The notes under the pieces are model-generated. The model was not told the origin of the DNA and did not search any database. It saw only the letters and a program-made list of their open reading frames with translations. Of a DNA stretch of 32,000 nucleotides, positions 3,253 through 28,678 are shown in pieces. The stretch comes from Candidatus Saccharimonadota bacterium (lineage in GTDB: Bacteria; Patescibacteriota; Gracilibacteria; UBA1369; 2-02-FULL-48-14). The position numbers were made by a program, and so were the translations under genes. Numbering within the stretch: position 1 is the stretch's first letter; each line of letters opens with the position of its first letter. The DNA is taken from assembly GCA_016699145.1 (NCBI GenBank), contig CP064962.1, forward strand, positions 1,290,001-1,322,000, given 5' to 3'.

Positions 3253-3329
3253 GGGCCCATAGCTCAGTTGGCTAGAGCGCTTCCATGGCATGGAAGAGGC
3301 CGTCGGTTCAAGTCCGATTGGGTCCACCA
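3253..3329 (+). tRNA. tRNA-Ala (anticodon GGC) with encoded 3' CCA
   Basis: I folded the cloverleaf by hand. The acceptor stem is GGGCCCA/TGGGTCC with the G3:U70 alanine identity pair. The D arm is GCTC-AGTTGGCTA-GAGC, the anticodon arm is CTTCC-ATGGCAT-GGAAG (anticodon GGC), and the T arm is GTCGG-TTCAAGT-CCGAT. The discriminator is A, followed by CCA. Confidence 0.9.
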
Positions 3330-3337
3330 AATTTTTT

Positions 3338-8418: not shown

Positions 8419-9900
8419 TTAAATCAAAGGCACTTGCGCTTCCATTTCCACTTGCGCACACGAACGACTTTCTTCCGCCGCACGCAACACTTCTTCCGTC
8501 ACATCTGGAGTGGGGTATTTTCCATCGAAACACGCCATGCAAAAACGCTCAATTTTTGGATTTCCTTCACGCACCGCTTCTGCCAAATCTTCTAAATTTT
8601 GATAAAAAACCCGATCCGCTCCAATGGCCTTTGAAATTTCATCTTCAGTCAATTCATTGGCCACAAATTCTTTACGACTGGGCATATCCACTCCATACAC
8701 ACAAGGATTATGCAGAGGCGCTGCTGCAGAAGCAAAATAAACCTTTTTAGCCCCCATATCTCGAACCATTTGCACAATCTTTTTAGATGTGTTTCCACGC
8801 ACAATGGAGTCATCCACCAGCAGCACATTCTTGCCCTCAATTTCGAGCCGAATCGGATTCAACTTTCGACGAATATTGCTTTGACGCATACTCTGTCCTG
8901 GCATAATAAAAGTGCGCCCCACATAACGATTTTTTACCAATCCTTCGCGGTACTTCACGCCCAGTTCATAGGCAAGAGGCACAGCGGAGTGACGAGAAGT
9001 GGAGGGCACCGGAATCACCACATCGATATCCATATTCGCAGCCTTGATTTTATGCGCCAATTTTTCACCCATGCGCAAACGTGCCTTGTACACCGAAATA
9101 TCATCAATCATGCTGTCGGGACGGGCAAAATAAACATATTCAAAAATACACGGGGTATAGACAGGTTTTTCGGCACAAATTTTACTAGTCATTTGTCCTT
9201 TGGTGTCCACAAAAATGACTTCCCCCGGTTTCACGTCGCGAATCACATTAAAGCCGAGCACATCGAGCGCCACGCTTTCAGAAGCAAAGATGGTGTCGGT
9301 GTACAAATCATCCTGGCGCTGCCCCATAATGAGCGGACGAATGGCATTGGGGTCACGGAACGCCATCATGCCCCTGCCGGCGATCATCACAATGCAGGCA
9401 TAGGCCCCCTTCACGCGTTTATAAACCTGTTCCATGGCCTTAAAGCACACCTCTGGCGTGAGCCCTGAAACGCCCAGTGCTTCAATTTCATGCGCTAAAA
9501 TATTGAGCAAAACTTCCGAGTCCGACTCCGTATTGAGATGCCGATGATCGGTGTCCAAAACTTCGCGTTTGAGTTGAGCCGTGTTCGTCAAATTTCCATT
9601 GTGAATCAGCGCAAGTCCAAACGGTGCGTTCACATAAAAAGGCTGTGCCTCCGCAGGATTGTAAGTGCCAGCCGTGGGGTAACGCACATGGGCCATTCCC
9701 GTATTTCCACGCAATACCTCCATGTCCTTTTGCTTAAAAACCTCAGACGCAAGTCCGTCCGCTTTTTTCATGTGGATGTGATGTCCCTCCATCGTCACCA
9801 TTCCCGCTGCATCTTGCCCGCGATGTTGAAGCATCATGAGTCCGTCGTAAAGTTCATTGGCGACAGGCTGATTGGAATGAATTCCGACGATTCCACACAT
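8419..9900 (-). CDS. purF: Amidophosphoribosyltransferase
   Basis: It has the N-terminal MCGIVG (Ntn nucleophile Cys) and the PRPP loop VLLVDDSIVRGNTS. A C-terminal Cys cluster (CMACFDGKYP) is consistent with the Fe-S type. Confidence 0.92.
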   Translation of the reverse strand: MCGIVGIHSNQPVANELYDGLMMLQHRGQDAAGMVTMEGHHIHMKKADGLASEVFKQKDMEVLRGNTGMAHVRYPTAGTYNPAEAQPFYVNAPFGLALIHNGNLTNTAQLKREVLDTDHRHLNTESDSEVLLNILAHEIEALGVSGLTPEVCFKAMEQVYKRVKGAYACIVMIAGRGMMAFRDPNAIRPLIMGQRQDDLYTDTIFASESVALDVLGFNVIRDVKPGEVIFVDTKGQMTSKICAEKPVYTPCIFEYVYFARPDSMIDDISVYKARLRMGEKLAHKIKAANMDIDVVIPVPSTSRHSAVPLAYELGVKYREGLVKNRYVGRTFIMPGQSMRQSNIRRKLNPIRLEIEGKNVLLVDDSIVRGNTSKKIVQMVRDMGAKKVYFASAAAPLHNPCVYGVDMPSRKEFVANELTEDEISKAIGADRVFYQNLEDLAEAVREGNPKIERFCMACFDGKYPTPDVTEEVLRAAEESRSCAQVEMEAQVPLI

Positions 9901-9931
9901 AGGGGAGGCCCGTTGGGCTATTTAAAAGCGA

Positions 9932-10789
9932 TCAAAGAGTAACTTGTTTGCGTGCCGCTGTCACGGTATTCATCAGCAAGCAGGCTACGGTCATGGGCCC
10001 CACGCCTCCAGGAACAGGAGTGATCATAGAGACCTTGGGTTCCACAGTTTCAAAATCCACATCTCCACACAGTTTTCCGTCTTCCGTGCGATGCATGCCC
10101 ACGTCGATCACAATGGCTCCTTCTTTCACCATGTCGGCTTTCACAAAACGAGGCTTGCCCACGGCAGCGACGAGCAAATCCGCCTCACGAGTGAATTTTT
10201 CTAAATCTTTGGTTTTACTGTGGCAAATCGTCACGGTGGCGTCGCGGTTCAAAAGCATCACTCCCATGGGTTTGCCCACAATATTGCTGCGTCCAATCAC
10301 TACGATGTTCATGCCGGATACATCGATCTTATAAAACTCCAAAATCTTGGTGATTCCCTTGGGTGTGCAAGGTGCCATGTTTTCAAATTCAGCGCTCAAA
10401 AACATTTTGCCCACATTATAGGCTTGGAATCCATCCACATCTTTCACGGGATCAATGGCTTTGATGATTTTTGAAACCTCCAAATGCTTGGGAATCGGCA
10501 ATTGCAAAATCATGCCATGCACTTCAGGATCATGATTGAGTCGCTCAATTTCAGCGATAAGCGCATCTTGGCTGATGCTTGCAGGCAATTCCAATTTTTC
10601 ACTGAGCATGCCCACTTTTTCACACGCTTCTTGCTTTTTGCGAACATAGACTTGGCTCGCAGCATTTTCACCCACAAAAATCACCACAAGTTTTGGGAAA
10701 ACACCCTTCTGCTTCAGTTCCTCCACGTCGCGTTGCACTTCAGCGAGCAGAGAATCAGAAACCGCGCGTCCATCCAGGATTTGTGCCAT
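9932..10789 (-). CDS. folD: Bifunctional methylenetetrahydrofolate dehydrogenase/methenyl-THF cyclohydrolase
   Basis: Motifs YVRKKQEACEKVGM, VIGRSNIVGKPM and TPVPGGVGPMTVA are present. Confidence 0.92.
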   Translation of the reverse strand: MAQILDGRAVSDSLLAEVQRDVEELKQKGVFPKLVVIFVGENAASQVYVRKKQEACEKVGMLSEKLELPASISQDALIAEIERLNHDPEVHGMILQLPIPKHLEVSKIIKAIDPVKDVDGFQAYNVGKMFLSAEFENMAPCTPKGITKILEFYKIDVSGMNIVVIGRSNIVGKPMGVMLLNRDATVTICHSKTKDLEKFTREADLLVAAVGKPRFVKADMVKEGAIVIDVGMHRTEDGKLCGDVDFETVEPKVSMITPVPGGVGPMTVACLLMNTVTAARKQVTL

Positions 10790-15080: not shown

Positions 15081-15704
15081 CTACTGAAGACTCTTTAGGA
15101 TGTCAAATAGTTTTTTCATCTTTTCATGTTCCGTTTGTGCGTACTCAAAACCATAAATGCGCTTCCCATACAAAGCGACCATGTGCACGGTCTTCACTTT
15201 ACTCTTATGATTGAAGTAAAACGAAGCATCTCCATACATGTTGACTTCATTCACGGTTCCCAGGTCGGGAAGAGCTTTAGCGGCTTCGCGCAAAGTCAAA
15301 TAAGCCTGAAAAGATCCGGTATCGGTCGGATAAACGATTTCATAAAAACTGCCCACATAGCGTTCTCCATCAAAAAAATTGAGTTGTGAAAGCTGGGACT
15401 GACTGGCATCGCTGAAGGGAATAATCTGAAAAATCAAGCCTGAAAAAAGAGCTTCTTTCACCACTGGAAGCGTAAAGCCCGCCTGGGTGAGCAAATCTCC
15501 AGTGATCCATGAAGGACTTTTTTCTTCTTGCAGTTCCACTTCTTCCTCCACAGGTTCCGTGTCCAGTGGCTCGGGGATTTCTTCCACGGTTTGATTCTCT
15601 TCCACCGCAGGGTCTTCACCCAAATAATCATGAAAAAGCACATCCACCGTCGCCAGCACCACGACTAGGGAAAGAAGCAGAGAAAATACGGTGAATTTTT
15701 GCAT
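15081..15704 (-). CDS. Hypothetical membrane-anchored protein (N-terminal TM/signal anchor, acidic E/P-rich linker, ~130-aa globular domain)
   Basis: [20 protein letters not shown] is the hydrophobic anchor and [21 protein letters not shown] the linker. I recognise no family. It sits co-directionally 17 nt downstream of nusG and 23 nt upstream of rplK. Confidence 0.6.
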
Positions 15705-15721: not shown

Positions 15722-16270
15722 TTATTTCTTCTTAACCTGATCAAAGTCGAGTTCCACAGGCGTTTCACGTCCGAAAATCGTGATCATCACTTTCACTTTA
15801 CCCTTTTCATCATCAATGGTGTTGACCACTCCTTCATAACCTGCAAAAGGTCCATCCAAAACCATGACCAAATCGGTCTTGGAAAGGCTAATTTTAAACT
15901 TGGGAGCATTGTCATCTTCCAAATAACGAGAAATCACACCAAACTCTTCGGCAGAAACAGGAACAGGGATGGTTCCGCTGCCCACAAAGCCGGTCACGTT
16001 GGGAGTGTTACGAACCACATACCAAGATTCGTCATCCACCATCATATCCACCAGTACATAACCAGGGAAAAGGCGTTTTTTTTCAGTTTTCGGCTTTCCT
16101 TTTTTCACTACAATTTGAGTTTCTTTAGGCACAATCACATCAAAAATCTTATCTTGCATGTTCATGGATTCGATACGCTGCAAAAGCGCCTCTCGAACCG
16201 CATCTTCATACCCGCTATAAGTATGGATGACATACCAGTGACGACCGGTGTTTTTAGCCTGTTTAGCCAT
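15722..16270 (-). CDS. nusG: Transcription termination/antitermination factor NusG
   Basis: WYVIHTYSGYE marks the NGN domain and GPFAGYEGVV the KOW motif. Confidence 0.92.
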   Translation of the reverse strand: MAKQAKNTGRHWYVIHTYSGYEDAVREALLQRIESMNMQDKIFDVIVPKETQIVVKKGKPKTEKKRLFPGYVLVDMMVDDESWYVVRNTPNVTGFVGSGTIPVPVSAEEFGVISRYLEDDNAPKFKISLSKTDLVMVLDGPFAGYEGVVNTIDDEKGKVKVMITIFGRETPVELDFDQVKKK

Positions 16271-16276
16271 AAAAAA

Positions 16277-16501
16277 TTAGGAAGAAAATTGTTCAAGAAC
16301 CCATTGATAAAGAGCGCTGAGACCGAAGTCGTAAGCGCCGAGCACAAGGGCGAAAAGAAGGGAAACGGCCACTACGATGCCCGTAAGGAGAGCGGCTTGT
16401 TCTTTGGTGGGCCAGGTGACCTTGCCAAATTCCTCAAAAGCTCCGACAAAGTAAGCCACAATGGGGTTCTTTGATTCGGAAGCGGATTTTTTTGCGTCCA
16501 T
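16277..16501 (-). CDS. secE: Preprotein translocase subunit SecE
   Basis: The 74-aa product MDAKKSASESKNPIVAYFVGAFEEFGKVTWPTKEQ... has a single C-terminal TM helix and sits directly upstream of nusG. The longer ORF to 16951 is a non-homologous extension running antisense to the next gene. Confidence 0.85.
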   Translation of the reverse strand: MDAKKSASESKNPIVAYFVGAFEEFGKVTWPTKEQAALLTGIVVAVSLLFALVLGAYDFGLSALYQWVLEQFSS

Positions 16502-16600
16502 AGTAACGTGAGTTATGCCAAAAAAGCCTTGGGGCTTCATGACAAGTTCCATTAAACAGCAAATGGAGCATAAAAAGCAAGTGCTTTCTTTCCTGTTTTG

Positions 16601-16609
16601 TGCTAAAAT
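16601..16609 (+). promoter_or_regulatory. Candidate extended -10 element (TGcTAAAAT) for the pilin-like/PKD operon
   Basis: TG at 16601-16602 and TAAAAT at 16604-16609 lie in an AT-rich stretch 20 nt upstream of the ATG at 16629. I found no good -35. Confidence 0.3.
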
Positions 16610-16628
16610 AATAAGAATAAATAAACGT

Positions 16629-17561
16629 ATGGCCTTCAAAATAGGTAAAAAACACCTTTGCAGCTTCTTGCTTTCGGTCGTGCTCGCCCTAGTCTTGAAC
16701 CTTACGCTGGGGGCCCTGCCCACCGCTTTTGCCAGCAGCTTTCTGCCTCTTCCTGGCACCGAAGGTTTGAACATTGCCACGCCTGAAGGAAACACGGCCA
16801 TAGAAAAACTGGAAAACTTTTTAGGCCCCTTCGCTCGCAATTTGCGCATCATTTTAGGGGGACTCGCCGTACTTTTCATTGTAGTTTCAGGGTTCACAAT
16901 GGTGGTTTCCGGCGACAACGAAGAAACTGCAAAAACGCAAAGAAAATCCATTGTTTACGGCTGCATCGGCCTCATGATGATCAGCATTGCCGGGCCCATC
17001 GCAGAGGTTTTTGACTACCGACAGGGCAATTTCATCAGCGATCCCTCGGACTTCACGGAGCGGGTCCGAATTTTTGACAATGTCACTCAACTCATCATCA
17101 CTTTCCTCAAATATCTTTTAGGAGGACTCGCCACGCTCATGGCCGTTCGGGCGGGAGCCATGCTCGTGATGTCAGGGGACAATGACGACGACGTGAGTAA
17201 GGCAAAAAAACAACTCACGCTCAGTCTAGCGGGTTTGATGCTCATTTTCGTTTCCAATTTGGTGATCCGTCGTATTTTCTATGTTGCCACTTACAGCACC
17301 AATGCCGAAGCCACCATCGTGCAACTGGACCAAAACGAATTCATTCGCCAACTCGTGGCTGTCACCAATTTGATGATCAGTTTCTTAGGCCCCATCATGA
17401 TGCTGGGCATTGTGATTGGAGGCTTCCTTTACGTGACTTCTCAAGGGGAAGAAGAAAAGACGGGTCTCGCCAAAAAAATCATCACCAATTCCATCATTGG
17501 AATCGTCATTATTTATGGAGCTTTTGCCCTTGTTTCAACTCTTATTGCAGGTCAATTCTAA
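16629..17561 (+). CDS. Secreted/polytopic membrane protein built from three tandem two-TM pilin-like hairpin modules (TrbC/VirB2-like, T4SS_pilin-type as I recall the family)
   Basis: It has a signal peptide, MAFKIGKKHLCSFLLSVVLALVLNLTLGALPTAFA. The three modules lie at nt 16842-17012, 17103-17279 and 17370-17546. Each is a hydrophobic helix, then (V/M/T)S(G/Q)(D/G)(N/E)(E/D)-x-(K)AKK, then a second hydrophobic helix, for example IGGFLYVTSQGEEEKTGLAKKIITNSIIGIVIIYGAFAL. ATG at 16629 is preferred over 16515 because the signal peptide begins there. Confidence 0.7.
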   Translation: MAFKIGKKHLCSFLLSVVLALVLNLTLGALPTAFASSFLPLPGTEGLNIATPEGNTAIEKLENFLGPFARNLRIILGGLAVLFIVVSGFTMVVSGDNEETAKTQRKSIVYGCIGLMMISIAGPIAEVFDYRQGNFISDPSDFTERVRIFDNVTQLIITFLKYLLGGLATLMAVRAGAMLVMSGDNDDDVSKAKKQLTLSLAGLMLIFVSNLVIRRIFYVATYSTNAEATIVQLDQNEFIRQLVAVTNLMISFLGPIMMLGIVIGGFLYVTSQGEEEKTGLAKKIITNSIIGIVIIYGAFALVSTLIAGQF

Positions 17562-17564
17562 TTC

Positions 17565-18506
17565 ATGAAAAAAATCCTCTTCACTTTCGCCCTCGCTGTG
17601 CTCGCCTCCACCGCACCCCATGTGGCAGCCACGAGCATTCAATTCCAAGAAATTTTGGATGATTTTCAAGAAGACGTAGCCAGCGAAAGTCAAGATGTGC
17701 AAGAAGGAGCAGAAGGCATCACCTTGCCCAATTTCAGTGAAGATGCTGAGGAAGGGGCCGACATCATTGTGTTGACCATCCGCCGTTTTTTGGACTTTTT
17801 TAAACTGATTGTGGCTCCTTTTGCCGTGCTGTTCGCCGTCATCATGGGGGTACGCATGGTCTCTGCAGGTCAAGAAAATGAAGAAGTGGCAGGACAAGCA
17901 AAAAATTTCATCCGCTACGCCTTGGAAGGTCTCATCATTATTTTTATGTCCGATTCCATTGTGAATGTGATGTTTGGCGCCGAAGGAGAAGTCTTCAGAG
18001 AAGGACAAGCGGGAGTGCAAGAGTTTGCAACGCGCAGCAGCAATCTTTTTAAAGGGATTTATACTTTGGTTCAAACCGTCATCGCCTCCATTGCCGTCTT
18101 TGTACTGGTCATGGCCGGGATGCGTTACGTGGTGGGTTCCACCAGTGACGACCAAATCGGTAAAGCCAAAAATCAGATCAAATGGGCCTTTGTGGGTCTT
18201 TTTGTGATTGGGATTTCTGAATTTGTGGTCAAAGATATCCTCTTTGAAAACTATGGACAAACTCTGGGAATCGAATCCGCCAAAGAACTCTTTGTGGATC
18301 TCACCAATTTTGTTTCAGGCACTTTGGGAACCTTGGCTTTCGTCATGCTCATTTACGCAGGTTTTTTATACCTCACCGCTTCTCAAAACGAGGACAATGC
18401 CGCTAAAGCCAAGAAGATCATTTTTGCCGCTTTGATTGGAATTGTGATCGCCATTTCGGCCTTTGCCATCACAAACACCTTTGTGGAGCTTGATGCTTCC
18501 CGATAA
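17565..18506 (+). CDS. Paralogous triple pilin-like hairpin membrane protein
   Basis: It has a signal peptide, MKKILFTFALAVLASTAPHVAA, followed by an acidic N-terminal region. The modules lie at nt 17796-17975, 18066-18245 and 18309-18485, for example IYAGFLYLTASQNEDNAAKAKKIIFAALIGIVIAISAFAI. It starts 3 nt after the upstream stop. Confidence 0.7.
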   Translation: MKKILFTFALAVLASTAPHVAATSIQFQEILDDFQEDVASESQDVQEGAEGITLPNFSEDAEEGADIIVLTIRRFLDFFKLIVAPFAVLFAVIMGVRMVSAGQENEEVAGQAKNFIRYALEGLIIIFMSDSIVNVMFGAEGEVFREGQAGVQEFATRSSNLFKGIYTLVQTVIASIAVFVLVMAGMRYVVGSTSDDQIGKAKNQIKWAFVGLFVIGISEFVVKDILFENYGQTLGIESAKELFVDLTNFVSGTLGTLAFVMLIYAGFLYLTASQNEDNAAKAKKIIFAALIGIVIAISAFAITNTFVELDASR

Positions 18507-18520
18507 CTCTCTATAATACT

Positions 18521-21500
18521 ATGGAAAGAATCCTCGCCATGACTTTAAAACCTCGTACCTTTCTCGCGACCCTGCTCCTCTTGAGCGGTCTCCTAACGGC
18601 CGTTCCGGTGGCTCAAGCCATCAGCGTTCCCATTGGGGATCAAGACTTGGAACAAGGGGATTTACAACCTGAAGATTGTGCCAATTTGGATGAAAGCTTA
18701 GCGGGTGCATTTGGCTGTGACACCAGCGATACCGTCACCGATTTTGTGGACTTCACCGGGGAATTGGAAGGACCCGATGCCGCCGGTTACGACGAAGCTC
18801 TCACCGAAAACACCAATGCGCGCGATTTCATTCAATCCGTCGTCAACTTTGCACTTTCTTTTGTGGGACTGATTTGTGTGGTCACCGTCATTTACGGAGG
18901 TCTCTTGTATGTGACCAGCCGTGGGGACGAAGAGCAAACCTCCAAAGCCAAAAAAGCCATCACTTATTCAGTGATTGGAATTGTGATCATCATGGGGTCC
19001 TTTGCCTTTGTGAACACCATTTTGCAGGTGGGCGGCGGGGGAAGCACAGGAGACGGCAACGGCACGGCTTTGAATGGAGAGACCATCAATGAATCGGGCG
19101 CCGCCTTCGACGTGAAAGACGTGCTCGACGAAATCGAACAAATCACCGAAGAATATGTGGAAGCCTATCAAACCTTGCTCGCAGTGAATAAAGAAGTGTC
19201 CTCGATGCAAGCCTTAGAAATGCCCGTAGTGGTGGAAGTGACAGAAAGGGAAAGAAGTTTAGGAGGAGTGATCGACTTCACCACCGAATATTTTACCGGT
19301 GAAGACGACGATTTCGCCGACACCTATACGGTTTTGGAAGAAGCGAGAGTGGATGCTTACACCACCAGCCTCGCTCGTGCCGCTCAAAACATCATGTCCG
19401 AAACCGATGCCCTGAGTGACACTTATGAAGACGCTTATCAATTGTATCAATATTTGCAATACGGCAGCCGAAATTTTGTGGCAGACGGTGACCCTGAGGC
19501 AGAGGCGTGTAACACGCTGAGTTTCAACGTTCGCGATAGAGAAGTGAATGGGAATTTGGGCTGGACCCGAACCGATGCCGAGGTGCAAGTGGTGGATCCT
19601 TACATTTGCAACTACATTGCCGCCATTTTGCAAAGCGCGGAATCCGACTACTTAGAAGTGATTGGAGATTCAGGTGTGGGGCTCATCGGTCGCTTTGAAG
19701 AATTGAAAGCGCTTTTCGACGTCAGTGAAAATGCAAGCGGTTCCAATCTCACCGGCATTGTGATGGCTTTGTCCAACGCACAAACCGCTTTGACCAATGC
19801 AAAAACCGTGATCAGCAACAGCACTATTCAAGAGATCCAATACGCTATGAACGAGCTTTATGAATTGGTGAAAAATGTCGAATTCGTTCAAGTGAGACTC
19901 ACCGCTACGGTGGTGGAGGGCAATGCGCCTTTGTTGGTGCGTTTTGATATTTTGGGTACGGAAGATCCCAGCGGAAACACAGTGGAAGATGCTCAAATTC
20001 AATGGGATTTGGATGGAAATGGAGTTTATGACGAAGCCGCAGTGGGTGAAGATTTAGGCGCAGATTCCATCAGTTACATTTTTGATCAAGCAGGCACTTA
20101 TAGAGTCAAAGTACGGGTGCTCAGTTCAGAACCCGACATTGCAGCAGGAGTTTCCACAGTGAGCATTCGAGTGCAGCCCGCAAAATCCCTCATCGTCATC
20201 AACGCCACAGTCGGTTCCAATGGCCCTCAAGCCATCGCCAACTTCATTCAGTCGCCAGCCATCAATAAGCCCAAGTTCAAAGTCACGGCCTCGGAAGCCT
20301 CCTCAGAAGCAGGGATTTTATTCGACGCCTCAGAAAGCACTGATGGAGAAGGAAACGTGTCTGGAATTCGCTATTATGAATGGGACTTTGGGGACAATGA
20401 AACAGAAGCCGGCAATTTTGAGCAAGCGGCCACCATTCGTCATTTCTATGCTCAAGAAGGAGTCTATGACGTGTCGCTGACCGTCACCGATCAAGATGGC
20501 GTGAAAGACAGCAAATACTTTAAACTTTACGTTGCCACCCCTGCAGCTCGCATCAATGCGTCTCCGGCCCTGGGCATCGCAGGCACGACCTTCACCTTAG
20601 ATGGATCTTCCTCCACCGCGGATGTCGGTTCGATTCGAAACTATCAATGGTCAGTGAGCAAGCAAGGAGGCGCCGCCATAAACCTTTCTCAAAACACCGG
20701 AAGCAGCATTCAAGTCACTTTAAACGAGCCTGGAATTTATGATGTGAACCTGAACGTATCCGACACTTCCTCTAAATCGGATGCAGCCACCGCCTTCGTG
20801 GTGGTGGAATCTCAAGCTCCTGTGGTGACTTACACCTATGAAATTGAAAATGAAAATCAGCCCTCCATTGTCACTTTCGACGCTCGAAACAGTTACGATC
20901 CCGACCCCAACGACCGCTTGGAATTTTCTTGGGATTTCGGCGGCTTTGAAGGGGAGGATTACATCATTCTAGAAGAATCGGAAGATCAATCGGAAGTCAC
21001 CGTTCAATTCTTAGACACCGGGGCTTACACCGTGCTGCTCACGGGTCACGATCAACACCCGCAGGCCATTCAAAAAAGCGACACAGCCACCGCCACCATT
21101 CAGGTGAATTCTATTTTGGATGTCGACCTCACAGTGAGCGGAGATGAAGCGCGGCATTTGAACCAAGATGGAGAAGCCGAAGTGGAATTCACTGCAGAAA
21201 GTGAATTCGGCTCCGCCTTTCAAATTGAATATGGAGACGGGGAAGTGGATTTTACCGACACACTCACCAATGGAAGAGCCATTTTCACTCATACTTACAA
21301 GCAAGCGGGGGTCTTTTATGTGAAACTCACCACCTACGATGACTCCGAACAGGAAGAAACCAACACCGACACTGTTCGTGTCTACATTGGCTCGGGCAAC
21401 GCCCCCATTGCCGTGATTGGAATTGGAGCCGAAAACACCGACATCGGTACAGGGCCCAGTTTTGTGGGCAGCGTGAAAACAACCTTCACCTTCTCTGCAA

Positions 21501-23368
21501 GCAATTCTGTGAATGTGGACGGCAGCAATCAAAACCTAACTTACAGTTGGAATTTTGGAGATGGCAGCACGGCGAATCAAGCGACCGTTACCCATAAATT
21601 TACAGAAAAAGCCACCTACAACGTCACCCTCACTGTGAAAGATAAAAACGACCCCAGCATCAGTGATGAAGCCGTGGTTCCCATTCAAATTCAAGGCATT
21701 GAGCCCAAAATCCAAAGCATTTCAGTGGTTCCCGTAAGCACCACCGAACTCACCACACCCCTCAAGGTCAACGTCTCGGTTACTGCTTCTGATGACGATG
21801 GAAAAATCACTTACATAAGAGGCTGGTATTACGACTTGGACGATTCCGCCACTCCACTCGGAACCGTGATTTCAGAATCCGGAAACTTCACTCTCACGCT
21901 CAACACCAACGGAGAAGAAGGTGAAAATAAAGAATACGGTTTTGCCGTGGAAGTCACCGACAACGACAACCAAACAGTGTCCAGTTTTGATCAACTCGAT
22001 CCCGCAGACATCCCCACGCTTTCTGTCATCAACGGGCCCAACGACAGTCCCGTAGCCTCTTTTTCAGTGGATAAATCTTCTCGTTACGTGGGGGAAGAAG
22101 TCACCTTTTCAAGCCTTTCTTACGACCCCGATGGAGAAATCGTGACCTACTGGTGGGACATTGAAGGCGATGGATTTTACAACAATGAGCCGACCCAAGT
22201 CAGCTCCTACACTTATGAATTTTCTCAAGTGCACAGTGAAGGCATCCCCGTGCGCTTAAAAGTGGAAGACAGTGCGGGCGCTACGGCTGAATCCGAACCC
22301 GTGATGATTTATGTGGACTCTTTGGCAGAAGATCCTGATGCCAAGTTTTTAACCGACATCGATGGCACTTATGTTCAGTTCCGTAACAATTCTTTTGTCG
22401 ACAGTGAAAACGGCGCAGAACTCGCCGGCACGTATTGGGATTTTGACCTGCAAAACGACAGCGATGGCAATGGAGTCAAAGACGACGACTTCGATTCTTT
22501 TGAAGAAAATCCCACATACAATTACGAAGAATTCGGTGTTTATAAAGTCAAAATGACCGTGGTGGACACCGTTGGACAAAGCGACACCGTGACGCAAGAC
22601 ATTGAAGTCAAAGAAACCGCCGCACCCGTGGCTGCCTTCACCTTCACCGTAGATGAAAAAAACGTTACTTTTAGGAACACCAGCACCGTGGACACCGAAC
22701 ATGGAGTGGACGTGCGCACTTACGCCTGGGATTTCGACACCACTCTAGATTCCAATGGCGATTCAGAAACGGACAATGACACTGATGCAGAATTGAAAAA
22801 CCCAAGCCACGAATACGCGGATTACGGCACTTATGAAGTGACCCTCACCGTGGTGGATACCTATGGAAAAATCGACACGGTCACTCAAACGGTGGAAATT
22901 GAAAATCCCATTCAAGCCTTGAATGCCATCTTAAGCAGCGTGCCTCAAGCCAATTCTTTGTCTCAAATTCTATTGAGGCAAGATGGCCAAGAAGTCAGTT
23001 TCTATTTTGGAGCCGAAGGGGGCAGTGAAGACTATCATTTCAGCTTGGATAAAAACATTTTTTACGACAGCAACGCGGATGGAATACGCGACAACGACGA
23101 AGATTACAGCTCTTCTTCACCGGGTTCTTGGAAAACTCCTTTCTTCATTTCTTACGGACAAATCGTGACCAAACTCACCGTAACCGACAATGAAACCGGC
23201 GACAGAGACATCAGCACCCTTCAAGTGGTCTTTGAAGGACACTTGGGAAGTGCTAATCTGTTCAATGCCACGCCCAAACAAATGGCACTGCTCATCTTGA
23301 GCGCCGCACTCACGGCTGCACTTGGAGTGAGCATGGCCTTTCGTTACAAACCTTTACCACGCCGCTAA
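18521..23368 (+). CDS. Giant (1615 aa) surface protein: signal peptide, one pilin-like hairpin module, ~290-aa helical region, ~11 PKD-like domains, C-terminal TM anchor
   Basis: The signal peptide is LATLLLLSGLLTAVPVAQA. The hairpin module at nt 18848-19024 reads IYGGLLYVTSRGDEEQTSKAKKAITYSVIGIVIIMGSFAF. PKD-type motifs recur (YEWDFGDN, YSWNFGDGSTANQATVTHKFTEKATYNVTLTVKD, YAWDFD...). The C-terminal sequence is MALLILSAALTAALGVSMAFRYKPLPRR. Confidence 0.8.
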   Translation: MERILAMTLKPRTFLATLLLLSGLLTAVPVAQAISVPIGDQDLEQGDLQPEDCANLDESLAGAFGCDTSDTVTDFVDFTGELEGPDAAGYDEALTENTNARDFIQSVVNFALSFVGLICVVTVIYGGLLYVTSRGDEEQTSKAKKAITYSVIGIVIIMGSFAFVNTILQVGGGGSTGDGNGTALNGETINESGAAFDVKDVLDEIEQITEEYVEAYQTLLAVNKEVSSMQALEMPVVVEVTERERSLGGVIDFTTEYFTGEDDDFADTYTVLEEARVDAYTTSLARAAQNIMSETDALSDTYEDAYQLYQYLQYGSRNFVADGDPEAEACNTLSFNVRDREVNGNLGWTRTDAEVQVVDPYICNYIAAILQSAESDYLEVIGDSGVGLIGRFEELKALFDVSENASGSNLTGIVMALSNAQTALTNAKTVISNSTIQEIQYAMNELYELVKNVEFVQVRLTATVVEGNAPLLVRFDILGTEDPSGNTVEDAQIQWDLDGNGVYDEAAVGEDLGADSISYIFDQAGTYRVKVRVLSSEPDIAAGVSTVSIRVQPAKSLIVINATVGSNGPQAIANFIQSPAINKPKFKVTASEASSEAGILFDASESTDGEGNVSGIRYYEWDFGDNETEAGNFEQAATIRHFYAQEGVYDVSLTVTDQDGVKDSKYFKLYVATPAARINASPALGIAGTTFTLDGSSSTADVGSIRNYQWSVSKQGGAAINLSQNTGSSIQVTLNEPGIYDVNLNVSDTSSKSDAATAFVVVESQAPVVTYTYEIENENQPSIVTFDARNSYDPDPNDRLEFSWDFGGFEGEDYIILEESEDQSEVTVQFLDTGAYTVLLTGHDQHPQAIQKSDTATATIQVNSILDVDLTVSGDEARHLNQDGEAEVEFTAESEFGSAFQIEYGDGEVDFTDTLTNGRAIFTHTYKQAGVFYVKLTTYDDSEQEETNTDTVRVYIGSGNAPIAVIGIGAENTDIGTGPSFVGSVKTTFTFSASNSVNVDGSNQNLTYSWNFGDGSTANQATVTHKFTEKATYNVTLTVKDKNDPSISDEAVVPIQIQGIEPKIQSISVVPVSTTELTTPLKVNVSVTASDDDGKITYIRGWYYDLDDSATPLGTVISESGNFTLTLNTNGEEGENKEYGFAVEVTDNDNQTVSSFDQLDPADIPTLSVINGPNDSPVASFSVDKSSRYVGEEVTFSSLSYDPDGEIVTYWWDIEGDGFYNNEPTQVSSYTYEFSQVHSEGIPVRLKVEDSAGATAESEPVMIYVDSLAEDPDAKFLTDIDGTYVQFRNNSFVDSENGAELAGTYWDFDLQNDSDGNGVKDDDFDSFEENPTYNYEEFGVYKVKMTVVDTVGQSDTVTQDIEVKETAAPVAAFTFTVDEKNVTFRNTSTVDTEHGVDVRTYAWDFDTTLDSNGDSETDNDTDAELKNPSHEYADYGTYEVTLTVVDTYGKIDTVTQTVEIENPIQALNAILSSVPQANSLSQILLRQDGQEVSFYFGAEGGSEDYHFSLDKNIFYDSNADGIRDNDEDYSSSSPGSWKTPFFISYGQIVTKLTVTDNETGDRDISTLQVVFEGHLGSANLFNATPKQMALLILSAALTAALGVSMAFRYKPLPRR
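19895..23236 (+). repeat. Array of ~11 PKD-like Ig-fold domains (protein-level repeats, diverged at DNA level)
   Basis: I counted by hand the recurrence of W-x-(F/L)-(G/D)-(D/G) ... Y-x-V-x-L-x-V-x-D blocks roughly every 85-110 aa. Confidence 0.7.
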
Positions 23369-23370
23369 TT

Positions 23371-25566
23371 ATGGATGTCACGCCCAATCCAATTCCAGAA
23401 AACAATCCAAATTTGGAAATGAAACCGAGTCCTGAGCCTGTGCCAAATGCTCCGTCACCTTTGCAAAATCCAGCGCCTCTGCAAAATTCCGCCTCTTTGC
23501 CCAATCCTGCTCCCAAAAAAACTCTGACTCCCGAAGAAAAAAAAGTCCAGCGCCAGGCCACGTTAAAACGCTTGGCCACGGTTTCAGTCGCCCTTTATGT
23601 CTTTCTTTTGTTGTTGATTTTTGCCTGGGGCACCTTCACCGCAGGGGTAGAACTCACGGTTTTTGATTACCTGCCGCTCAGCCAGAACACCTTCAGTGGA
23701 GCCTTGATGACTTTGTTTCATATTCTCTTAGGAGCCAGCGTTTTTATTTTGTTCTTCTACAGTTTAGTGGCTCTCCTTAAGTCCATGTTCACCAAAAAAG
23801 AAGAGGTGGAAAAAAAGAAAAAAGCGTCTCGAAAAGCATTGCTCGGAGGCTTGACCTTTCTCCTGTTTGCAGCCGCTTGGTTGGCGGGCATTTGGTATTT
23901 GGGGCCTCGTTTGGTGCTTACCGATCTTTACGAGTCTCCCATCAAAACCATTCCCACTCAAACGCTGGGTTTGACTTCTCCCGTTGAAATTCGTTTCGAT
24001 GCCAGTGGAATTCCGGTGGACACCAAGCTTTATAGAATTCTTTCTTACACCTGGGATTTTGGAGATGGAGCCACGGCCAATGGAGTCAGCACTGCACACA
24101 CTTACACGCAAAAAGCCACTGGAAACGGAATTTACACCGTGCTTCTTTCCGTGCGTTATGCCGATCTGAGCACGGGTGAACAATTTGAAGACACTTTCAA
24201 AACCACCGTGGCCATTGCCAATGAAAAGACAGCCGCCTATTTCACGGCCAATCCTGAAGCAGGGGAATTGCCCTTGAAAGTGCATTTCGACGCCACCAGT
24301 TCTTATGATCCCGACGGGGAAATTGTGGCCTACGAATGGGATTTCGACAACGACGGAAGTTTTGATGATGGAGAAGGAGAAGAAATCGATCACACCTTCA
24401 CTCAAGAAGGGGACTACCTCGTGTCTTTGCGCGTCACCGACAACAGTGGTGAATACAACACGGCCAGTCTCACCATTGAAGCGGGAAGCATTGGAGGCTT
24501 GCGTGCCGTCATCACCACCAACGTCGCAGAAGGGGAAGCCTACTACTTGGACGAAGAATATAAATTCGATGGCTCTCTTTCACAAATTGGAGAAGGGAAA
24601 ATCACTCAATACAGCTGGGATTTTGGAGATGGCAGTGTTGCCGTAAAGACGCGTTCCGTCAATCACCGTTTTGAAGCAGTGGGAGTTTATACGGTGGTGC
24701 TCACCGTGACCGATCCCGAAGGCAACAGCGATGAAAGCACGCTCGAAGTTCGGGTGGTGGAAGAAGGCTCCGCTCCCGAGGCAAAAATTTCTACGCTTCC
24801 AGCTTTAGAAAATAGAGCCGTTACGGGTCCGGTTCCTTTAGAAGTTCGTTTTGATGCCACTGCTTCTTTCGATGAAGAAAACGACATCGTGGACTATGAA
24901 TGGGATTTCGACAACGATGGAACGGTAGATGACACTGGGGACACCGCTACCCACACGTATCAAGTAGAAGGCTCTTTTGAAGCCCGCCTCATCACCACCG
25001 ACTCGGTTGGGAATGTGGACGAAGCCCTCGTGCCCATTGAAGTGACAGCTCAAGGACTCATCGCTCGTCTCGAAATCGATCAAAGCAATGGAGAAGTGCC
25101 GCTCACCGTTGAATTCGACGCCAGCGCATCGACCTACAAAGAAGGCAACATTGTCTCTTATGAATACGATTTTGGGGATGGAAGTGACAGCTACATTGGA
25201 GGCTCCAGCGTCACATATCGTTACAATGCCGTGGGTACTTTCACCGCCAGCGTCACCGTGATCGCGAGCGACGGAAAAAGAGGCAGCACCAGCGTTCAAA
25301 TTGTCGTTCGTCCTGTGGCTTTGACGGCTTGTTTCACCGTGAACACCGATTCCGGACAAGCACCCCTCTTCGTTTCTGTGGATCCTTCCTGTTCGGAGGG
25401 CACCGTGGATTCCTATCATTGGGATTTTGGCGACGGGGAAATCAGTTTTGACCGCAAACCCGAAACCCACACCTATTCCACTCCCGGCACCTACACCATC
25501 ACTTTAGAAGTGACCAGTGCAGAAGGAATCGTCAGCGTCTTTGAAAATGAAATCACCGTGCGCTAA
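23371..25566 (+). CDS. Polytopic membrane protein with Pro/Asn-rich N-terminal tail, 3 TM helices and 6 PKD domains
   Basis: The N-terminal tail reads PNPIPENNPNLEMKPSPEPVPNAPSPLQNPAPLQNSASLPNPAP. The TM helices are VSVALYVFLLLLIFAWGTF, ALMTLFHILLGASVFILFFYSLVALL and LLGGLTFLLFAAAWLAGIWYLG. Six WDFGDG/WDFDNDG PKD blocks follow. It starts 2 nt after the upstream stop. Confidence 0.8.
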   Translation: MDVTPNPIPENNPNLEMKPSPEPVPNAPSPLQNPAPLQNSASLPNPAPKKTLTPEEKKVQRQATLKRLATVSVALYVFLLLLIFAWGTFTAGVELTVFDYLPLSQNTFSGALMTLFHILLGASVFILFFYSLVALLKSMFTKKEEVEKKKKASRKALLGGLTFLLFAAAWLAGIWYLGPRLVLTDLYESPIKTIPTQTLGLTSPVEIRFDASGIPVDTKLYRILSYTWDFGDGATANGVSTAHTYTQKATGNGIYTVLLSVRYADLSTGEQFEDTFKTTVAIANEKTAAYFTANPEAGELPLKVHFDATSSYDPDGEIVAYEWDFDNDGSFDDGEGEEIDHTFTQEGDYLVSLRVTDNSGEYNTASLTIEAGSIGGLRAVITTNVAEGEAYYLDEEYKFDGSLSQIGEGKITQYSWDFGDGSVAVKTRSVNHRFEAVGVYTVVLTVTDPEGNSDESTLEVRVVEEGSAPEAKISTLPALENRAVTGPVPLEVRFDATASFDEENDIVDYEWDFDNDGTVDDTGDTATHTYQVEGSFEARLITTDSVGNVDEALVPIEVTAQGLIARLEIDQSNGEVPLTVEFDASASTYKEGNIVSYEYDFGDGSDSYIGGSSVTYRYNAVGTFTASVTVIASDGKRGSTSVQIVVRPVALTACFTVNTDSGQAPLFVSVDPSCSEGTVDSYHWDFGDGEISFDRKPETHTYSTPGTYTITLEVTSAEGIVSVFENEITVR
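23978..25563 (+). repeat. Array of 6 PKD domains
   Basis: The six blocks are SYTWDFGDGATANG, AYEWDFDNDGSFDDG, QYSWDFGDGSVAV, DYEWDFDNDGTVDD, SYEYDFGDGSDSY and SYHWDFGDGEISF. Each is followed by a Y-T-V/L-x-L-x-V-type strand. Confidence 0.8.
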
Positions 25567-26921
25567 GTTCGATTGGGGTGGACCAAATTTTCTAAAGCGA
25601 TGAGCTTCTTGTATTTTTCAGGAACTTTTTTCACAAAAGGGATTTTTTTAGCTTTGGATTCTTTCACCCACTCCGCCACTTCATGATAACCGAGCACGGG
25701 CGCCAAGGCTGTGGCCATCGCCGTACTGTTTTCCAAAACGATCTTCATTTGAGATGCGTTGGCCTCAATTCCTTCAATACAATGTTCGCGCAAAATTTGA
25801 AAACCCTGTGTCATGATTTCAATGGCATGCAAAAGATCGAACATGATGAGCGGTGTGTACCAATTGAGTTCCAATTGACCGCGCTGTGCAGCCAGCGCAA
25901 TGGCATGATCCATGGCCATGCTTTGCACGCAGATCATGCTCACACATTCTAAAACCGAAGGATTCACTTTTCCTGGCATGATAGAAGACCCAGGCTCCAC
26001 TTCAGGCAGTTGAATTTCTGCAAAAGCCCCACTGGAGAGCAGGCGTAAATCATCGCTCATGCGTAAAACTTCACTGGCGAGCCCTCGCAAAGCTCCAGAA
26101 ACAGAAGCAAAAACCGCCATGCTGTTGTTGTTCTCAAAAGGATTCAAAGCTTGAAACTCAATGTCCAAACGTCGACTCAAATTTTTACGCATTTTTTCAG
26201 TAAATTTTGGATGAGTGTTGATGCCACTTCCTGTAGCAGTGGCCCCAATGCCGGTGTAGGTCAATTCTTCGGCTGCAAAATCCAAACGCTCCAAAGCATG
26301 TTCCAGAGCACTGGCATAGGATTTGAATTCTTGGCCCAGCGTTACGGGCACGGCATCCTGCAAATGAGTGCGGCCCACTTTCAAGATTTTTTCAAATTTC
26401 TTTGCTTTCTTTTCCAAAGCTTCAATCAAATCCAAACCACTCACCACCAGTCCTCCCAAATCCATCAGGGCTGCGAGCCGAATGGCCGTGGGAATCACAT
26501 CGTTGGACGATTGACTCATGTTCACGTGATTGTTGGGGTGCACCCGCTTGTATTCCCCCTTTTTTCCACCCAAAAGTTCACTGGCTCGATTGGCTAAAAT
26601 TTCATTCAAATTCATATTGAAAGGGGTGCCAGCTCCCGCTTGATAAACATCCAACTGAAAATCTGCATCGAATTTTCCATCTAAAAATTCTTCTCCTGCT
26701 TGAACAATGGCCGCCGCACTTTTTTTAGGCAGATGACCCAACGCCGCATTCACTTCCGCCGCTGCCATTTTAATGAGAGCCAAGCTGACACGAAAAGAAT
26801 CGGGCGCTTTGAGATTTGAAATTTTAAAATTGGCTAAGGCCCGCGCAGTGAAACTCCCCCCATAACTCTCTGAAGGGACCTGAACAGAACCCAATGCATC
26901 GATTTCAGTACGAGTTTTCAT
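25563..26921 (-). CDS. Class II fumarate hydratase / aspartate ammonia-lyase family enzyme (subfamily not resolved)
   Basis: The signature GSSIMPGKVNPS is present. SQSSNDVIPTA and LANRASELLGG resemble FumC, while DVYQAGAGT resembles aspartase. The stop overlaps the convergent PKD gene stop. Confidence 0.8.
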   Translation of the reverse strand: MKTRTEIDALGSVQVPSESYGGSFTARALANFKISNLKAPDSFRVSLALIKMAAAEVNAALGHLPKKSAAAIVQAGEEFLDGKFDADFQLDVYQAGAGTPFNMNLNEILANRASELLGGKKGEYKRVHPNNHVNMSQSSNDVIPTAIRLAALMDLGGLVVSGLDLIEALEKKAKKFEKILKVGRTHLQDAVPVTLGQEFKSYASALEHALERLDFAAEELTYTGIGATATGSGINTHPKFTEKMRKNLSRRLDIEFQALNPFENNNSMAVFASVSGALRGLASEVLRMSDDLRLLSSGAFAEIQLPEVEPGSSIMPGKVNPSVLECVSMICVQSMAMDHAIALAAQRGQLELNWYTPLIMFDLLHAIEIMTQGFQILREHCIEGIEANASQMKIVLENSTAMATALAPVLGYHEVAEWVKESKAKKIPFVKKVPEKYKKLIALENLVHPNRT

Positions 26922-27576: not shown

Positions 27577-28221
27577 TTATAAAGGTTTAGCACTGGGAAC
27601 CCCCACTCGTCGAGGGTAGGATGCAGACAAGGATTTCACTTTTTCAAAGCGTAAAATCACGCGCTCTTCAGAACCCGCAAGGGAATAGATAAAAGAATCG
27701 CGATACAGCAGCCCCAATTCCGCTTGAGCTCTTTGAGAAGTTGTCAATTCTTCCAGGTATTCAGGTCCCTTCCAAGCGTAAAGATGCCCACCAACTTTTA
27801 AAAAACTTGAGGAGTATTCCAAAAGCACCGGCAAAGCCGCTAAAGCGCGTGCCGTCACAAAATCAAAACGCTCCCGATATTTTTTTTCATGACCCAATTC
27901 TTCCAAACGTCCCACAAGCGTGCTGGCATTTTTAAGTTTCAAAGCCTCAATCATCTGCTGCACGGCTTTCATTTTTTTTTCACGAGCATCCACCAAAGTG
28001 AACTTCACCTCCGGGCAACTCACTGCCAAAGCCAACCCTGGCAATCCGCCCCCGGTGCCCACATCCATACCCTGGGCCCCTTTTTTCACCATCCAAAATT
28101 CAAGCACCGCCAGACTGTCGGGCAAATGCTTCTCCCCAATCTTCAATCGATCTCCCGCTGAAAACAGATTAAGCTCCTGGCTCTTCTGTTCCAATAGGCT
28201 CTGGAGTAGGGGAAGGTTCAT
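27577..28221 (-). CDS. rsmG: 16S rRNA (guanine527-N7)-methyltransferase RsmG (GidB)
   Basis: It contains HLPDSL, the SAM motif DVGTGGGLPGLALA and TLVDAREKK. The start is uncertain (ATG 28221, ATG 28254, ATG 28293 or TTG 28194), and every candidate overlaps the upstream lipoprotein ORF. Confidence 0.8.
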   Translation of the reverse strand: MNLPLLQSLLEQKSQELNLFSAGDRLKIGEKHLPDSLAVLEFWMVKKGAQGMDVGTGGGLPGLALAVSCPEVKFTLVDAREKKMKAVQQMIEALKLKNASTLVGRLEELGHEKKYRERFDFVTARALAALPVLLEYSSSFLKVGGHLYAWKGPEYLEELTTSQRAQAELGLLYRDSFIYSLAGSEERVILRFEKVKSLSASYPRRVGVPSAKPL

Positions 28222-28678
28222 GGGGTTCAGAAACGGGTTCAAGGGGCTCTTCATTTTCAATGCCTTCAGGATTCTCAAGGGGTTCTTCCGCAAGGGGTTC
28301 TTCCACCGCAGGCTCGCCCTGCAAAGTCAGCTCAATGGAAGCCGAAGCCGTCTCGGTGGTCGTAGGGTCAAAAACAGTAGCGGTCACTTCACAAGCCGCC
28401 CCTGTAGGTAAATCTTTCATCAGAGTCAAAGGAAGTTTGTGCACGGTAGAAACAGGACTATCCTCGTCCACAATCGGCAAAAGTTCCAAGGGTTCAGCCC
28501 CGTCACAGCTCACTTTGGAGATGTAAGCCAAGGTGGGCTGACTCACCACAAAGTCCAAGGTGCTGACTGCAGGATCCACCACCGAGCCTGGGGCATTGGT
28601 GAAGGTGAGGGTATAAGGTGCAACTAAAGAACAGCCGGCGCTGAGCAGCAAAGCGGCAAAGGAAAGAGTCTTTTTCAT
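28169..28678 (-). CDS. Putative lipoprotein with acidic E/P-rich C-terminal tail
   Basis: MKKTLSFAALLLSAGC has a lipobox-like LSAGC with Cys at position 16. The C-terminus reads EEPLAEEPLENPEGIENEEPLEPVSEPHEPSPTPEP. Confidence 0.6.
   Translation of the reverse strand: MKKTLSFAALLLSAGCSLVAPYTLTFTNAPGSVVDPAVSTLDFVVSQPTLAYISKVSCDGAEPLELLPIVDEDSPVSTVHKLPLTLMKDLPTGAACEVTATVFDPTTTETASASIELTLQGEPAVEEPLAEEPLENPEGIENEEPLEPVSEPHEPSPTPEPIGTEEPGA

Follow-up and report, generated by a model that had tools for sequence, protein, structure and literature searches.

Patescibacteria carry a chromosomal type IV secretion system (T4SS) of the monoderm type, and VirB4 has been found in 2,417 of 3,035 genomes (PMC12102498). 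The same study, which made use of the Pfam families PF18895 and PF04956, describes 441 arrays of 2–11 separate VirB2-like pilin genes in 383 Patescibacteria assemblies, the pilins having a mutual identity of about 25%; in the Gracilibacteria TrsD, VirB3 and other T4SS genes are mostly not near virB4 (PMC12102498). In Ca. Southlakia epibionticum a six-pilin array within the T4SS cluster SEML1_0006–0019 is essential (PMC10633639, PMC12857230). We describe here a locus of four genes, A to D, in which VirB2-like hairpins are fused within single chains. The locus lies in a chromosomal stretch of 32,000 nucleotides from a Candidatus Peregrinibacteria/Peribacteria bacterium (contig CP064962.1, positions 1,290,001 to 1,322,000 of the forward strand), in the following called the window, to which all coordinates refer unless another locus is named. 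The neighbouring genes A and B each encode three hairpins, and the gene for the giant protein C encodes a seventh hairpin together with PKD repeats.

The locus appears to belong to a known kind, the patescibacterial VirB2-like pilin arrays, and the fusion of position-specific modules within the chain and the organization as a 3+3+1 operon with PKD proteins appear to be an undescribed variant of it. The arrays are defined by at least two PF18895 or PF04956 genes in tandem or one gene apart (PMC12102498), and A, B and C are consecutive. The high mutual divergence of the arrayed pilins (about 25% identity, PMC12102498) is also seen here, with 20–29% identity between module positions and 36–40% among the third modules of A and B and the single module of C (A3, B3 and C1). 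Sec signal peptides, PF18895 matches, divergent hairpins side by side, the chromosomal location and a reduced genome are further features in common, and the six modules of A and B, to which C has to be added, compare with six separate genes in S. epibionticum. Unlike the arrays, however, the locus has three hairpins per chain joined by invariant linkers, is not in or beside a virB4 cluster and is always accompanied by two PKD-repeat membrane proteins, one of them hairpin-bearing, and its module positions are strongly conserved. Hairpins fused in one chain or paired with PKD proteins are mentioned neither in PMC12102498, PMC10633639 and PMC12857230 nor in the other literature searched. Two further features also appear to be undescribed, namely the core-genome site beside secE–nusG away from a T4SS cluster and the recurrent 2- to at least 14-fold fusion of hairpins, which includes an archaeon.

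Among the classical pilins VirB2, TrbC and TraA (T-pilus, 8cue/8exh; F-pilus) have the signal peptide, the two long hydrophobic helices and the short charged turn in common with the proteins described here, and there are weak-to-moderate matches to PF04956 (26.4 bits for A and 29–84 bits for relatives). These pilins differ in that they have one hairpin per chain (about 70–120 aa), are encoded by genes of T4SS operons and depend on VirB4-type machines for their polymerisation. The Mbov_0395/MMCAP2_0565 family of the Mycoplasma integrative and conjugative elements (ICE) likewise consists of VirB2-like hairpins in wall-poor or monoderm lineages. The model of this family has 80 positions and the genes are located on mobile elements, whereas here we find three modules per chain and a chromosomal location in the core genome.

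Two adjacent genes encode three pilin-type hairpins per chain

Gene A (16629..17561, plus strand, 310 aa) and its paralogue B (17565..18506, plus strand, 313 aa) each encode a signal peptide followed by three pilin-type hairpins. This layout had been proposed in a first-pass annotation made from the sequence of the window, and it is borne out by Pfam, by hydropathy and by structure prediction. PF18895 (T4SS_pilin, gathering threshold 26.6) matches A in three separate stretches (E 6.6e-22, 77.8 bits), B in three stretches (E 3.6e-28, 97.9 bits) and C in one stretch (aa 102–167, E 6.3e-11, 42.6 bits). With limits defined by hidden Markov models (HMM) the modules of A are located at 16815..17012 (A1), 17079..17279 (A2) and 17349..17546 (A3, YVTSQGEEEKTGLAKKII...), those of B at 17775..17975 (B1), 18042..18242 (B2) and 18288..18485 (B3), and the module of C, the seventh hairpin of the operon, at 18824..19024 (C1), all on the plus strand. 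Modules A1, A2, B1 and B2 are assigned to an internal type, A3 and B3 to a canonical or terminal type and C1 to the canonical type (see below). These starts are about 8 residues upstream of those in the first-pass annotation, whose six coordinate pairs are in frame with both open reading frames (ORFs) and translate to the peptides that it quoted. A six-frame scan of the window with a module HMM gave no module beyond the seven; this HMM was built from the seven modules, and their own scores in that scan are circular.

The Kyte–Doolittle hydropathy profiles of A and B each show an N-terminal signal-like segment and six hydrophobic helices, and that of C shows a signal, two helices and one C-terminal helix. 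AlphaFold2 models calculated with family alignments contain in A and in B six helices of 30–43 residues, paired by 4-residue turns, after the signal helix. In B the helices span residues 64–101/106–137, 148–190/195–226 and 236–271/276–311 (pLDDT 79.6, pTM 0.56) and in A residues 57–93/98–127, 139–181/186–217 and 235–270/275–309 (pLDDT 70.1, pTM 0.46). Since the helices are paired hairpins, the objection to the three-module layout that a different topology would raise does not apply. Signal peptides are predicted at aa 1–35 of A with cleavage between TAFA and SS, at aa 1–22 of B with cleavage between HVAA and TS, and in C with cleavage between AQA and I, all three AXA-type sites being read from the sequence. 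Judged by hydropathy and AlphaFold2 the proteins thus have the VirB2-type layout of a cleavable signal peptide followed by two hydrophobic helices with a short charged loop, but with 310, 313 and 1615 aa they do not have the small size of single-hairpin VirB2-type pilins (about 70–130 aa). The linker peptides of A include QGNFISDPSDFTER and IFDNVTQLIITFLK, and the linker regions of B are situated around residues 138–167 and 228–248. A and B are predicted to be Sec-exported membrane proteins with six transmembrane helices, built from three helix-turn-helix hairpins of the VirB2/TrbC type each.

Downstream of B follow gene C (18521..23368, plus strand, 1615 aa), whose product has one hairpin after the signal peptide, then PKD stretches and at its C-terminus a transmembrane anchor, and gene D (23371..25566, plus strand, 731 aa), encoding three transmembrane helices and six PKD domains. 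The four genes are arranged head to tail with intergenic gaps of 3 nt (A–B), 14 nt (B–C) and 2 nt (C–D), and with genes nearly abutting in this manner A-B-C-D is predicted to form one co-transcribed operon. All four products carry transmembrane segments. A and B are identical with the NCBI entries IPG41_07140 and IPG41_07145, respectively (100% identity each). The ORF of A opens at 16515, and the reading of A from this first ATG was corrected to the start at 16629 (MAFKIGK...), on which NCBI, all orthologues and the alignment consensus agree.

Conservation of the 3+3+1 locus

We analyzed 25 loci, namely 21 loci from a scan with one genome per species (Peribacteria, Peregrinibacteria or 'Gracilibacteria'), the loci L001, L003 and L005, and the window. 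All of the 23 loci that cover A, B and C show the 3+3+1 arrangement of modules, and in 21 of the 23 both A and B came out as intact genes of three modules. Trivial exceptions are caused by a contig end, which truncates A in L011 and C in L023. The sole exception to the intact three-module genes is L012, a Peribacteria metagenome-assembled genome, in which A (9059–9999) is divided between an ORF of 182 aa and one of 147 aa (one and two modules), either by a frameshift error or because it is a pseudogene. In L005 and L028 the ORF-based start of B is extended upstream, so that B overlaps A, and the 3+3 pattern is intact.

Homologues from NCBI, JGI, ENA and Logan assemblies form 178 clusters at 90% identity for A and 119 for B, nearly all of 300–350 aa. 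Since all 23 covering loci show it, the 3+3+1 layout is no assembly artefact, and because more than 200 clusters from these four sources share the same length and layout, the three-module form does not result from the joining of separate genes. Where called-gene tables are available, the loci retain the gene order secE-nusG-x-rplK-rplA divergent to A-B-C-D even when protein identity has fallen to about 30%, and secE is the conserved neighbour in every locus with tabulated upstream genes (L001–L006). The gene spacing of 2–14 nt is conserved as well.

The linkers between the hairpins are part of this conservation. In the families of A and B (95–115 orthologues) their gap fraction is 0.00, and their entropy amounts to 1.24–1.37 bits, with 0.7–1.3 bits for helices and turns and 2.3 bits for the signal peptides. 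The module period is invariant (89/89 aa in A and 89/81 aa in B), and the mean column identity of A and B is 53–57%, including the parts that would face outward.

Position-specific module classes

The first-pass annotation had suggested that the modules have position-specific roles, and clustering by position in a phylogeny was set beforehand as the test of this idea. A neighbour-joining tree of 168 modules from the 25 loci consists of almost pure positional clades (22/23, 22/23, 23/23, 22/25, 24/25, 25/25 and 24/24). With 20–22 core genomes, the three most divergent genomes being left out, each position has a bootstrap support of 79–99/100, and hence the modules do cluster by position. The proposal that the third modules and the module of the giant protein are the closest mutual relatives was correct as well: A3, B3 and C1 form a clade with a bootstrap support of 87/100 with or without the three most divergent genomes, and mean identities are 45–64% within positions, 20–29% between positions and 36–40% among A3, B3 and C1. 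In profile–profile comparisons with hhalign the scores are 75.2 for A3–B3, 75.1 for A1–A2, 71.7 for A2–B2 and 68.5 for A1–B1, and modules 1 and 2 score 32–43 against A3 and 34–59 against B3.

When the three most divergent genomes are included, support for strict monophyly of positions 1 and 2 falls to 1–8/100, and with this collapse the tree gives no branching order for A1, A2, B1 and B2. We do not claim that the whole gene was duplicated after the triplication, an order of events with which the hhalign scores would be compatible.

The single-hairpin pilins of a Doudnabacteria array (L007) have their best profiles in A3, B3 and C1, and the last or single modules of the L009 lineage (see below) also score best with these three profiles. 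This argues that the C-terminal module represents the canonical pilin type and the upstream modules a derived internal type. On the basis of these profile comparisons A3, B3 and C1 appear as canonical modules which still resemble free-standing pilins, and the four internal modules appear as derived.

Chain fusions in other lineages

With a single-module profile we searched 1.84 billion representative proteins and obtained 56,743 matches at E ≤ 1e-3 and 194 at E ≤ 1e-30. All of the best 150 of the 56,743 matches have two or more matched stretches. Among these 150 are 147 new proteins, which carry 2 to at least 14 modules, and the fusion is therefore not unique to A and B as had been assumed at first. 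Three modules per chain are most frequent (93 proteins), followed by four (29), six (9), five (7), seven (4) and two (2), and there is one protein each with 8, 10 and 14 or more modules; relatives of A and B are over-represented in this list. The median module period of the 147 proteins is 88 aa. The last module sits right at the C-terminal end of the chain, with a median of 6 residues behind it, and in 138/147 proteins it is of the canonical type. Pfam detects up to 8–11 PF18895 stretches per chain in the multi-module relatives, and in P0316 seven hairpins and PKD domains are combined within a single chain.

In locus L009 (5158–14424) there are genes for two proteins with four modules each, a 400-aa protein without known function, single-module proteins of 487 and 174 aa and a PKD protein. 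Locus L032 (9925–16481) encodes an 8-module protein, a single pilin, a hairpin–PKD fusion and a PKD protein. The hairpins add up to 10 in L009 (4+4+1+1), 10 in L032 (8+1+1) and 7 in the window. The same operon logic, that is multi-hairpin, single-hairpin and PKD proteins encoded together, is therefore found in two further bacterial lineages, both metagenomic, and the fused chains of the family are often accompanied by PKD proteins. In a Candidatus Altiarchaeales archaeon (L033, NJDH01000003.1, 4175–9247) two adjacent genes encode 5 and 10 VirB2-like hairpins per chain. Their neighbours are Mrp antiporter and A/V-ATPase genes, and PKD genes are not among them.

The giant protein C and protein D

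Protein C has nine PKD stretches, and its PKD-repeat ectodomain comprises roughly 1100 aa. A further stretch of roughly 300 aa has neither annotation nor Pfam match, and a homologue search with residues 1–490 of C returned one protein only. At the C-terminal end (23252..23344, plus strand) the motif ANLFNATP with an N-x-T sequon precedes a transmembrane helix (aa 1587–1608), which is followed by the basic tail RYKPLPRR up to the stop codon. The combination of G(S/G)ANLFNATP, transmembrane helix and basic tail recurs in the C orthologues of 17 further loci, and no other protein encoded in the roughly 0.45 Mb of sequence examined has it. This three-part C-terminus (23252–23368) resembles a sortase- or exosortase-type sorting signal, but without a match to any known CTERM model.

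The cytoplasmic N-terminus of protein D is Pro-rich and is followed by three transmembrane helices at aa 63–178 (nt 23557–23904). This transmembrane domain and the three-helix domain of the L009 PKD protein are homologues (30% identity over 191 aa, E 3e-12). The second transmembrane helix, the loop KKEEVEKKKK and the third helix look like a degenerate pilin hairpin. Considered as a candidate eighth hairpin, D gives weak matches to NF045849 (15.8 bits) and NF045848 (17.1 bits), but an hhalign probability of only 20–34% and only 0.8 bits with the module HMM. NF045848 is the MMCAP2_0566-family conjugal transfer protein, whose name suggests an ICE neighbour of the pilin-like gene.

Relation to conjugative pilins and type IV secretion

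With PF04956 (TrbC/VirB2, gathering threshold 27.9) A scores 26.4 bits and C 19.7 bits, both below the threshold, and B gives no hit. The cutoff is passed by relatives, namely the 487-aa protein of L009 (28.8 bits) and P0240, P0279 and P0363 (51–84 bits). Therefore homology at the family level is likely, though the proteins of the window do not qualify alone. The NCBIfam model NF045849 (Mbov_0395 family, cutoff 40) is matched by A (45.3) and B (57.3), and C is just under the cutoff (39.2). This equivalog is about one hairpin long, and A and B consequently match it as a domain and not as true equivalents. Taken from PF18895, PF04956 and NF045849, homology of the hairpins to the conjugative-pilin superfamily is likely.

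No T4SS gene, VirB4-type genes included, was found anywhere in the window (32 kb), nor in the flanking sequence of about 10 kb at either end of the locus in L001 and L003, the two loci whose called-gene tables extend so far. The analogous operons L009, L032 and L033 likewise have no called type IV secretion ATPase in their surroundings of about 10 kb.

Genomic surroundings

Upstream of A lies secE (16277..16474, minus strand), the first gene of the divergent cluster secE-nusG-(hypothetical)-rplK-rplA. The hypothetical gene (15081–15704, minus strand) is situated between nusG and rplK, which are normally adjacent, and encodes a 207-aa protein with an N-terminal hydrophobic helix and no Pfam or NCBIfam match; at the same place a gene for 227 aa is present in L001 and a gene for 297 aa in L003. 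Downstream of D, on the opposite strand, there are a Lyase_1-family gene, an FtsJ-family methyltransferase gene and rsmG/gidB, the last one (27577–28293) about 2 kb past the end of the operon. In L001 and L021 the syntenic locus is 6.5–38 kb from the record start, and one of these records, each about 1.3 Mb long, (OZ246396.1) is labelled chromosome. Possibly the operon is near the replication origin, like reported patescibacterial T4SS genes, though the record starts may be arbitrary.

A promoter and terminator scan of 16200–25800 gave counts no higher than chance. A sigma-70-like sequence (TTGATG, 16 nt, TATAAT) is located at 18490–18517 on the plus strand inside the 3′ end of B and just before C; with the site count of the region at chance level it may mean nothing. 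Elsewhere in the window a protein with three S-layer homology (SLH) domains is encoded at 226–1488 (plus strand), implying a wall-anchored surface layer in this organism. A tRNA-Ala gene (anticodon GGC; 3253–3329, plus strand) overlaps the first 40 nt of ORF 3290–4297 (Sua5/TsaC family), whose true start is probably further downstream.

Discussion

With moderate confidence we favour the explanation that A–D represent the chain-fused form, of fixed composition, which the patescibacterial VirB2-like pilin array has taken in the Peribacteria lineage, and that this array roots PKD surface proteins in the envelope. After cleavage of the signal peptide each hairpin would insert with both ends outside, and the acidic-then-basic turn (..GDNEE..KAKK..) would be cytoplasmic. 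The short rigid linkers of invariant length would keep the order of the three adjacent hairpins of a chain fixed. Seven hairpins, each of its own conserved kind (3+3+1), would then, together with D, build a hetero-oligomeric envelope assembly of fixed composition, which would root the PKD proteins and present them on the surface, presumably for attachment to other cells. C would be anchored at two points, by its hairpin and by its C-terminal helix. We infer from the locus that A, B, C and D associate physically and that their role is adhesive, and likewise the form of the assembly, for which a membrane platform or stalk as well as a short lipid-lined fibre come into consideration. The first-pass annotation had also suggested that the fusion could pre-set the stoichiometry or the register of an assembly, and the gap-free linkers and the fixed module period would be compatible with this suggestion.

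Several observations weigh against this explanation. Profile and sequence searches of the PDB sequences did not find a solved pilin. When the 168 modules were compared by hhalign with VirB2 of A. tumefaciens, a query which we had checked residue by residue against 8cue/8exh, the score was 11.5 and that of the reversed control 15.0, and the shuffled controls were likewise not exceeded. Foldseek searches of the PDB with both whole-chain models gave nothing below E 0.29; the matches at E ≥ 0.29 are to designed helical-repeat, 14-3-3 and HEAT-like proteins only, which at most hints that the models describe an open hairpin array and not a compact bundle. Because no match to solved pilins was found, it is only through profile-family cross-hits that the proteins are linked to real pili. 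Moreover, the global confidence of both AlphaFold2 models is only moderate (pTM 0.56 for B and 0.46 for A), and simple anchors hardly account for chains with 8 to at least 14 hairpins, for which a polymer-like wall fits better.

An alternative view is that A and B are the major subunits of an extruded, lipid-containing pilus of the conjugative type, with a remote VirB4-type machine pulling them out of the membrane and polymerising three hairpins at a time and C serving as a FimH-like adhesin by means of its own pilin module. Chains of up to at least 14 hairpins resemble pre-made strands, the hairpins are homologous to VirB2/TrbC and to the pilin-like families of the Mycoplasma ICE, and their helices of 30–43 residues exceed the need of a bilayer, as in conjugative pilins. 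In the solved conjugative pili, the F- and the T-pilus, both termini are on the outer face, and short outside linkers could therefore connect neighbouring protomers in such an arrangement. VirB4 is common in Patescibacteria, and the other T4SS genes of Gracilibacteria are mostly away from virB4 (PMC12102498). What speaks against an extruded pilus is that no T4SS gene was found in the window or near the locus in the two related genomes mentioned above, that C has a second, C-terminal membrane anchor and that D is plainly membrane-resident. The near-abutting genes suggest roughly equimolar products and not a large excess of pilin, and the strong conservation of A and B (53–57% column identity) differs from that of the fast-diverging arrays (average 25%, PMC12102498). 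On balance we give the extruded pilus, the main rival of our explanation, a modest chance.

Two other explanations were considered. If the hairpins are the building block of a polytopic membrane protein, for example a channel or a transporter, they would have no role in a pilus or in secretion and the PKD genes would be functionally unlinked. Some orthologues are indeed named 'cytochrome bd oxidase subunit 2' or 'NADH:ubiquinone oxidoreductase subunit 6', there are weak Pfam matches to Cyt_bd_oxida_II, and the archaeal multi-hairpin genes of L033 are without PKD neighbours. However, the Cyt_bd_oxida_II score is far under the cutoff (19.4 vs 35.6 bits), hairpin and PKD repeats are part of the same chain in C and P0316, the hairpin–PKD operon is found in three lineages and the gene spacing of 2–14 nt is conserved. 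We therefore consider a mere polytopic protein very unlikely. The orthologues P0058, P0193 and P0238 are among those with cytochrome bd or NADH dehydrogenase names, which probably go back to sub-threshold cross-hits between transmembrane helices. Highly unlikely is the proposal that A and B are polyprotein precursors which are cut between the modules into three single-hairpin pilins each. Canonical VirB2 and TrbC pilins are proteolytically processed, and helix 2 of every hairpin is laid out like a signal peptide, with a basic stretch and a hydrophobic helix running from inside to outside. A conserved small-x-small motif is nevertheless missing after helix 2 of modules 1 and 2 (for example IAGPIAEVF followed by DYRQ in A and IVNVMF followed by GAEGE in B), and AlphaFold2 runs helix 1 of the next module far into each linker. 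Conservation of the linkers almost equals that of the helices, and their length is constant; this speaks for a structural role and against disposable spacers.

Our preferred explanation, an envelope array which roots PKD proteins, has parallels in design. In rotary ATPases the hairpins of the c-subunit have been fused in tandem, as in the duplicated V-type c and in the triplicated and 13-fold archaeal K subunits. There, too, the tandem fusion of normally separate oligomerising hairpins fixes number and order; this is an analogy in design only, as there is no homology and the function of the proteolipids is that of an ion-driven rotor ring. In two-domain tip adhesins such as FimH one pilin-type module is joined to a large extracellular region of a binding type, as in C, but the FimH module is an Ig-like donor-strand pilin and not a helical hairpin, and C has its extra C-terminal membrane anchor. 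The Pam pili of bacteria from the candidate phyla radiation (CPR) consist of Ig-fold pilins without hairpins, which are assembled by donor-strand exchange (bioRxiv 10.64898/2026.03.03.709456), and have in common with the locus that they are a CPR-specific surface appendage system. We looked for a link to the Pam pili and rejected it, the PamR NCBIfam scores of C (44.5 bits) and D (36.5 bits) being far under the cutoff of 300; shared are the beta-sandwich repeats only.

Going beyond the single locus, we put forward with little confidence that hairpin-plus-PKD operons may encode a T4SS-independent ring, tube or short fibre of the envelope whose subunit number and order are hard-wired by fusion, as in the fused proteolipids. 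Ultrasmall symbiotic cells could use such a structure as the base or conduit of an attachment organelle decorated with PKD proteins, and the archaeal pair of 5 and 10 hairpins would be included; this extension, too, we regard as rather doubtful.

VirB2-like arrays belong to the small number of gene sets with a demonstrated essential role in the epibiotic life of Patescibacteria. At present the proteins described here are annotated as 'hypothetical' or 'pilin', or wrongly as 'cytochrome bd subunit II' and 'NADH dehydrogenase subunit 6'. The fusion within the chain is a concrete structural constraint on what the essential hairpins build, be it a pilus, a channel or something else. Since fused neighbours must be side by side, in the same orientation and in a fixed order, any structural model of the assembly can be put to the test. 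That the locus is invariantly linked to PKD giants, one of which bears a hairpin, points to the presentation of adhesins and away from DNA transfer, and the absence of nearby secretion ATPases raises the question whether the hairpins need a T4SS at all. If a T4SS-independent ring, tube or fibre is indeed formed, it would represent a new class of cell-surface appendage, and VirB2-like proteins would have a life outside type IV secretion.

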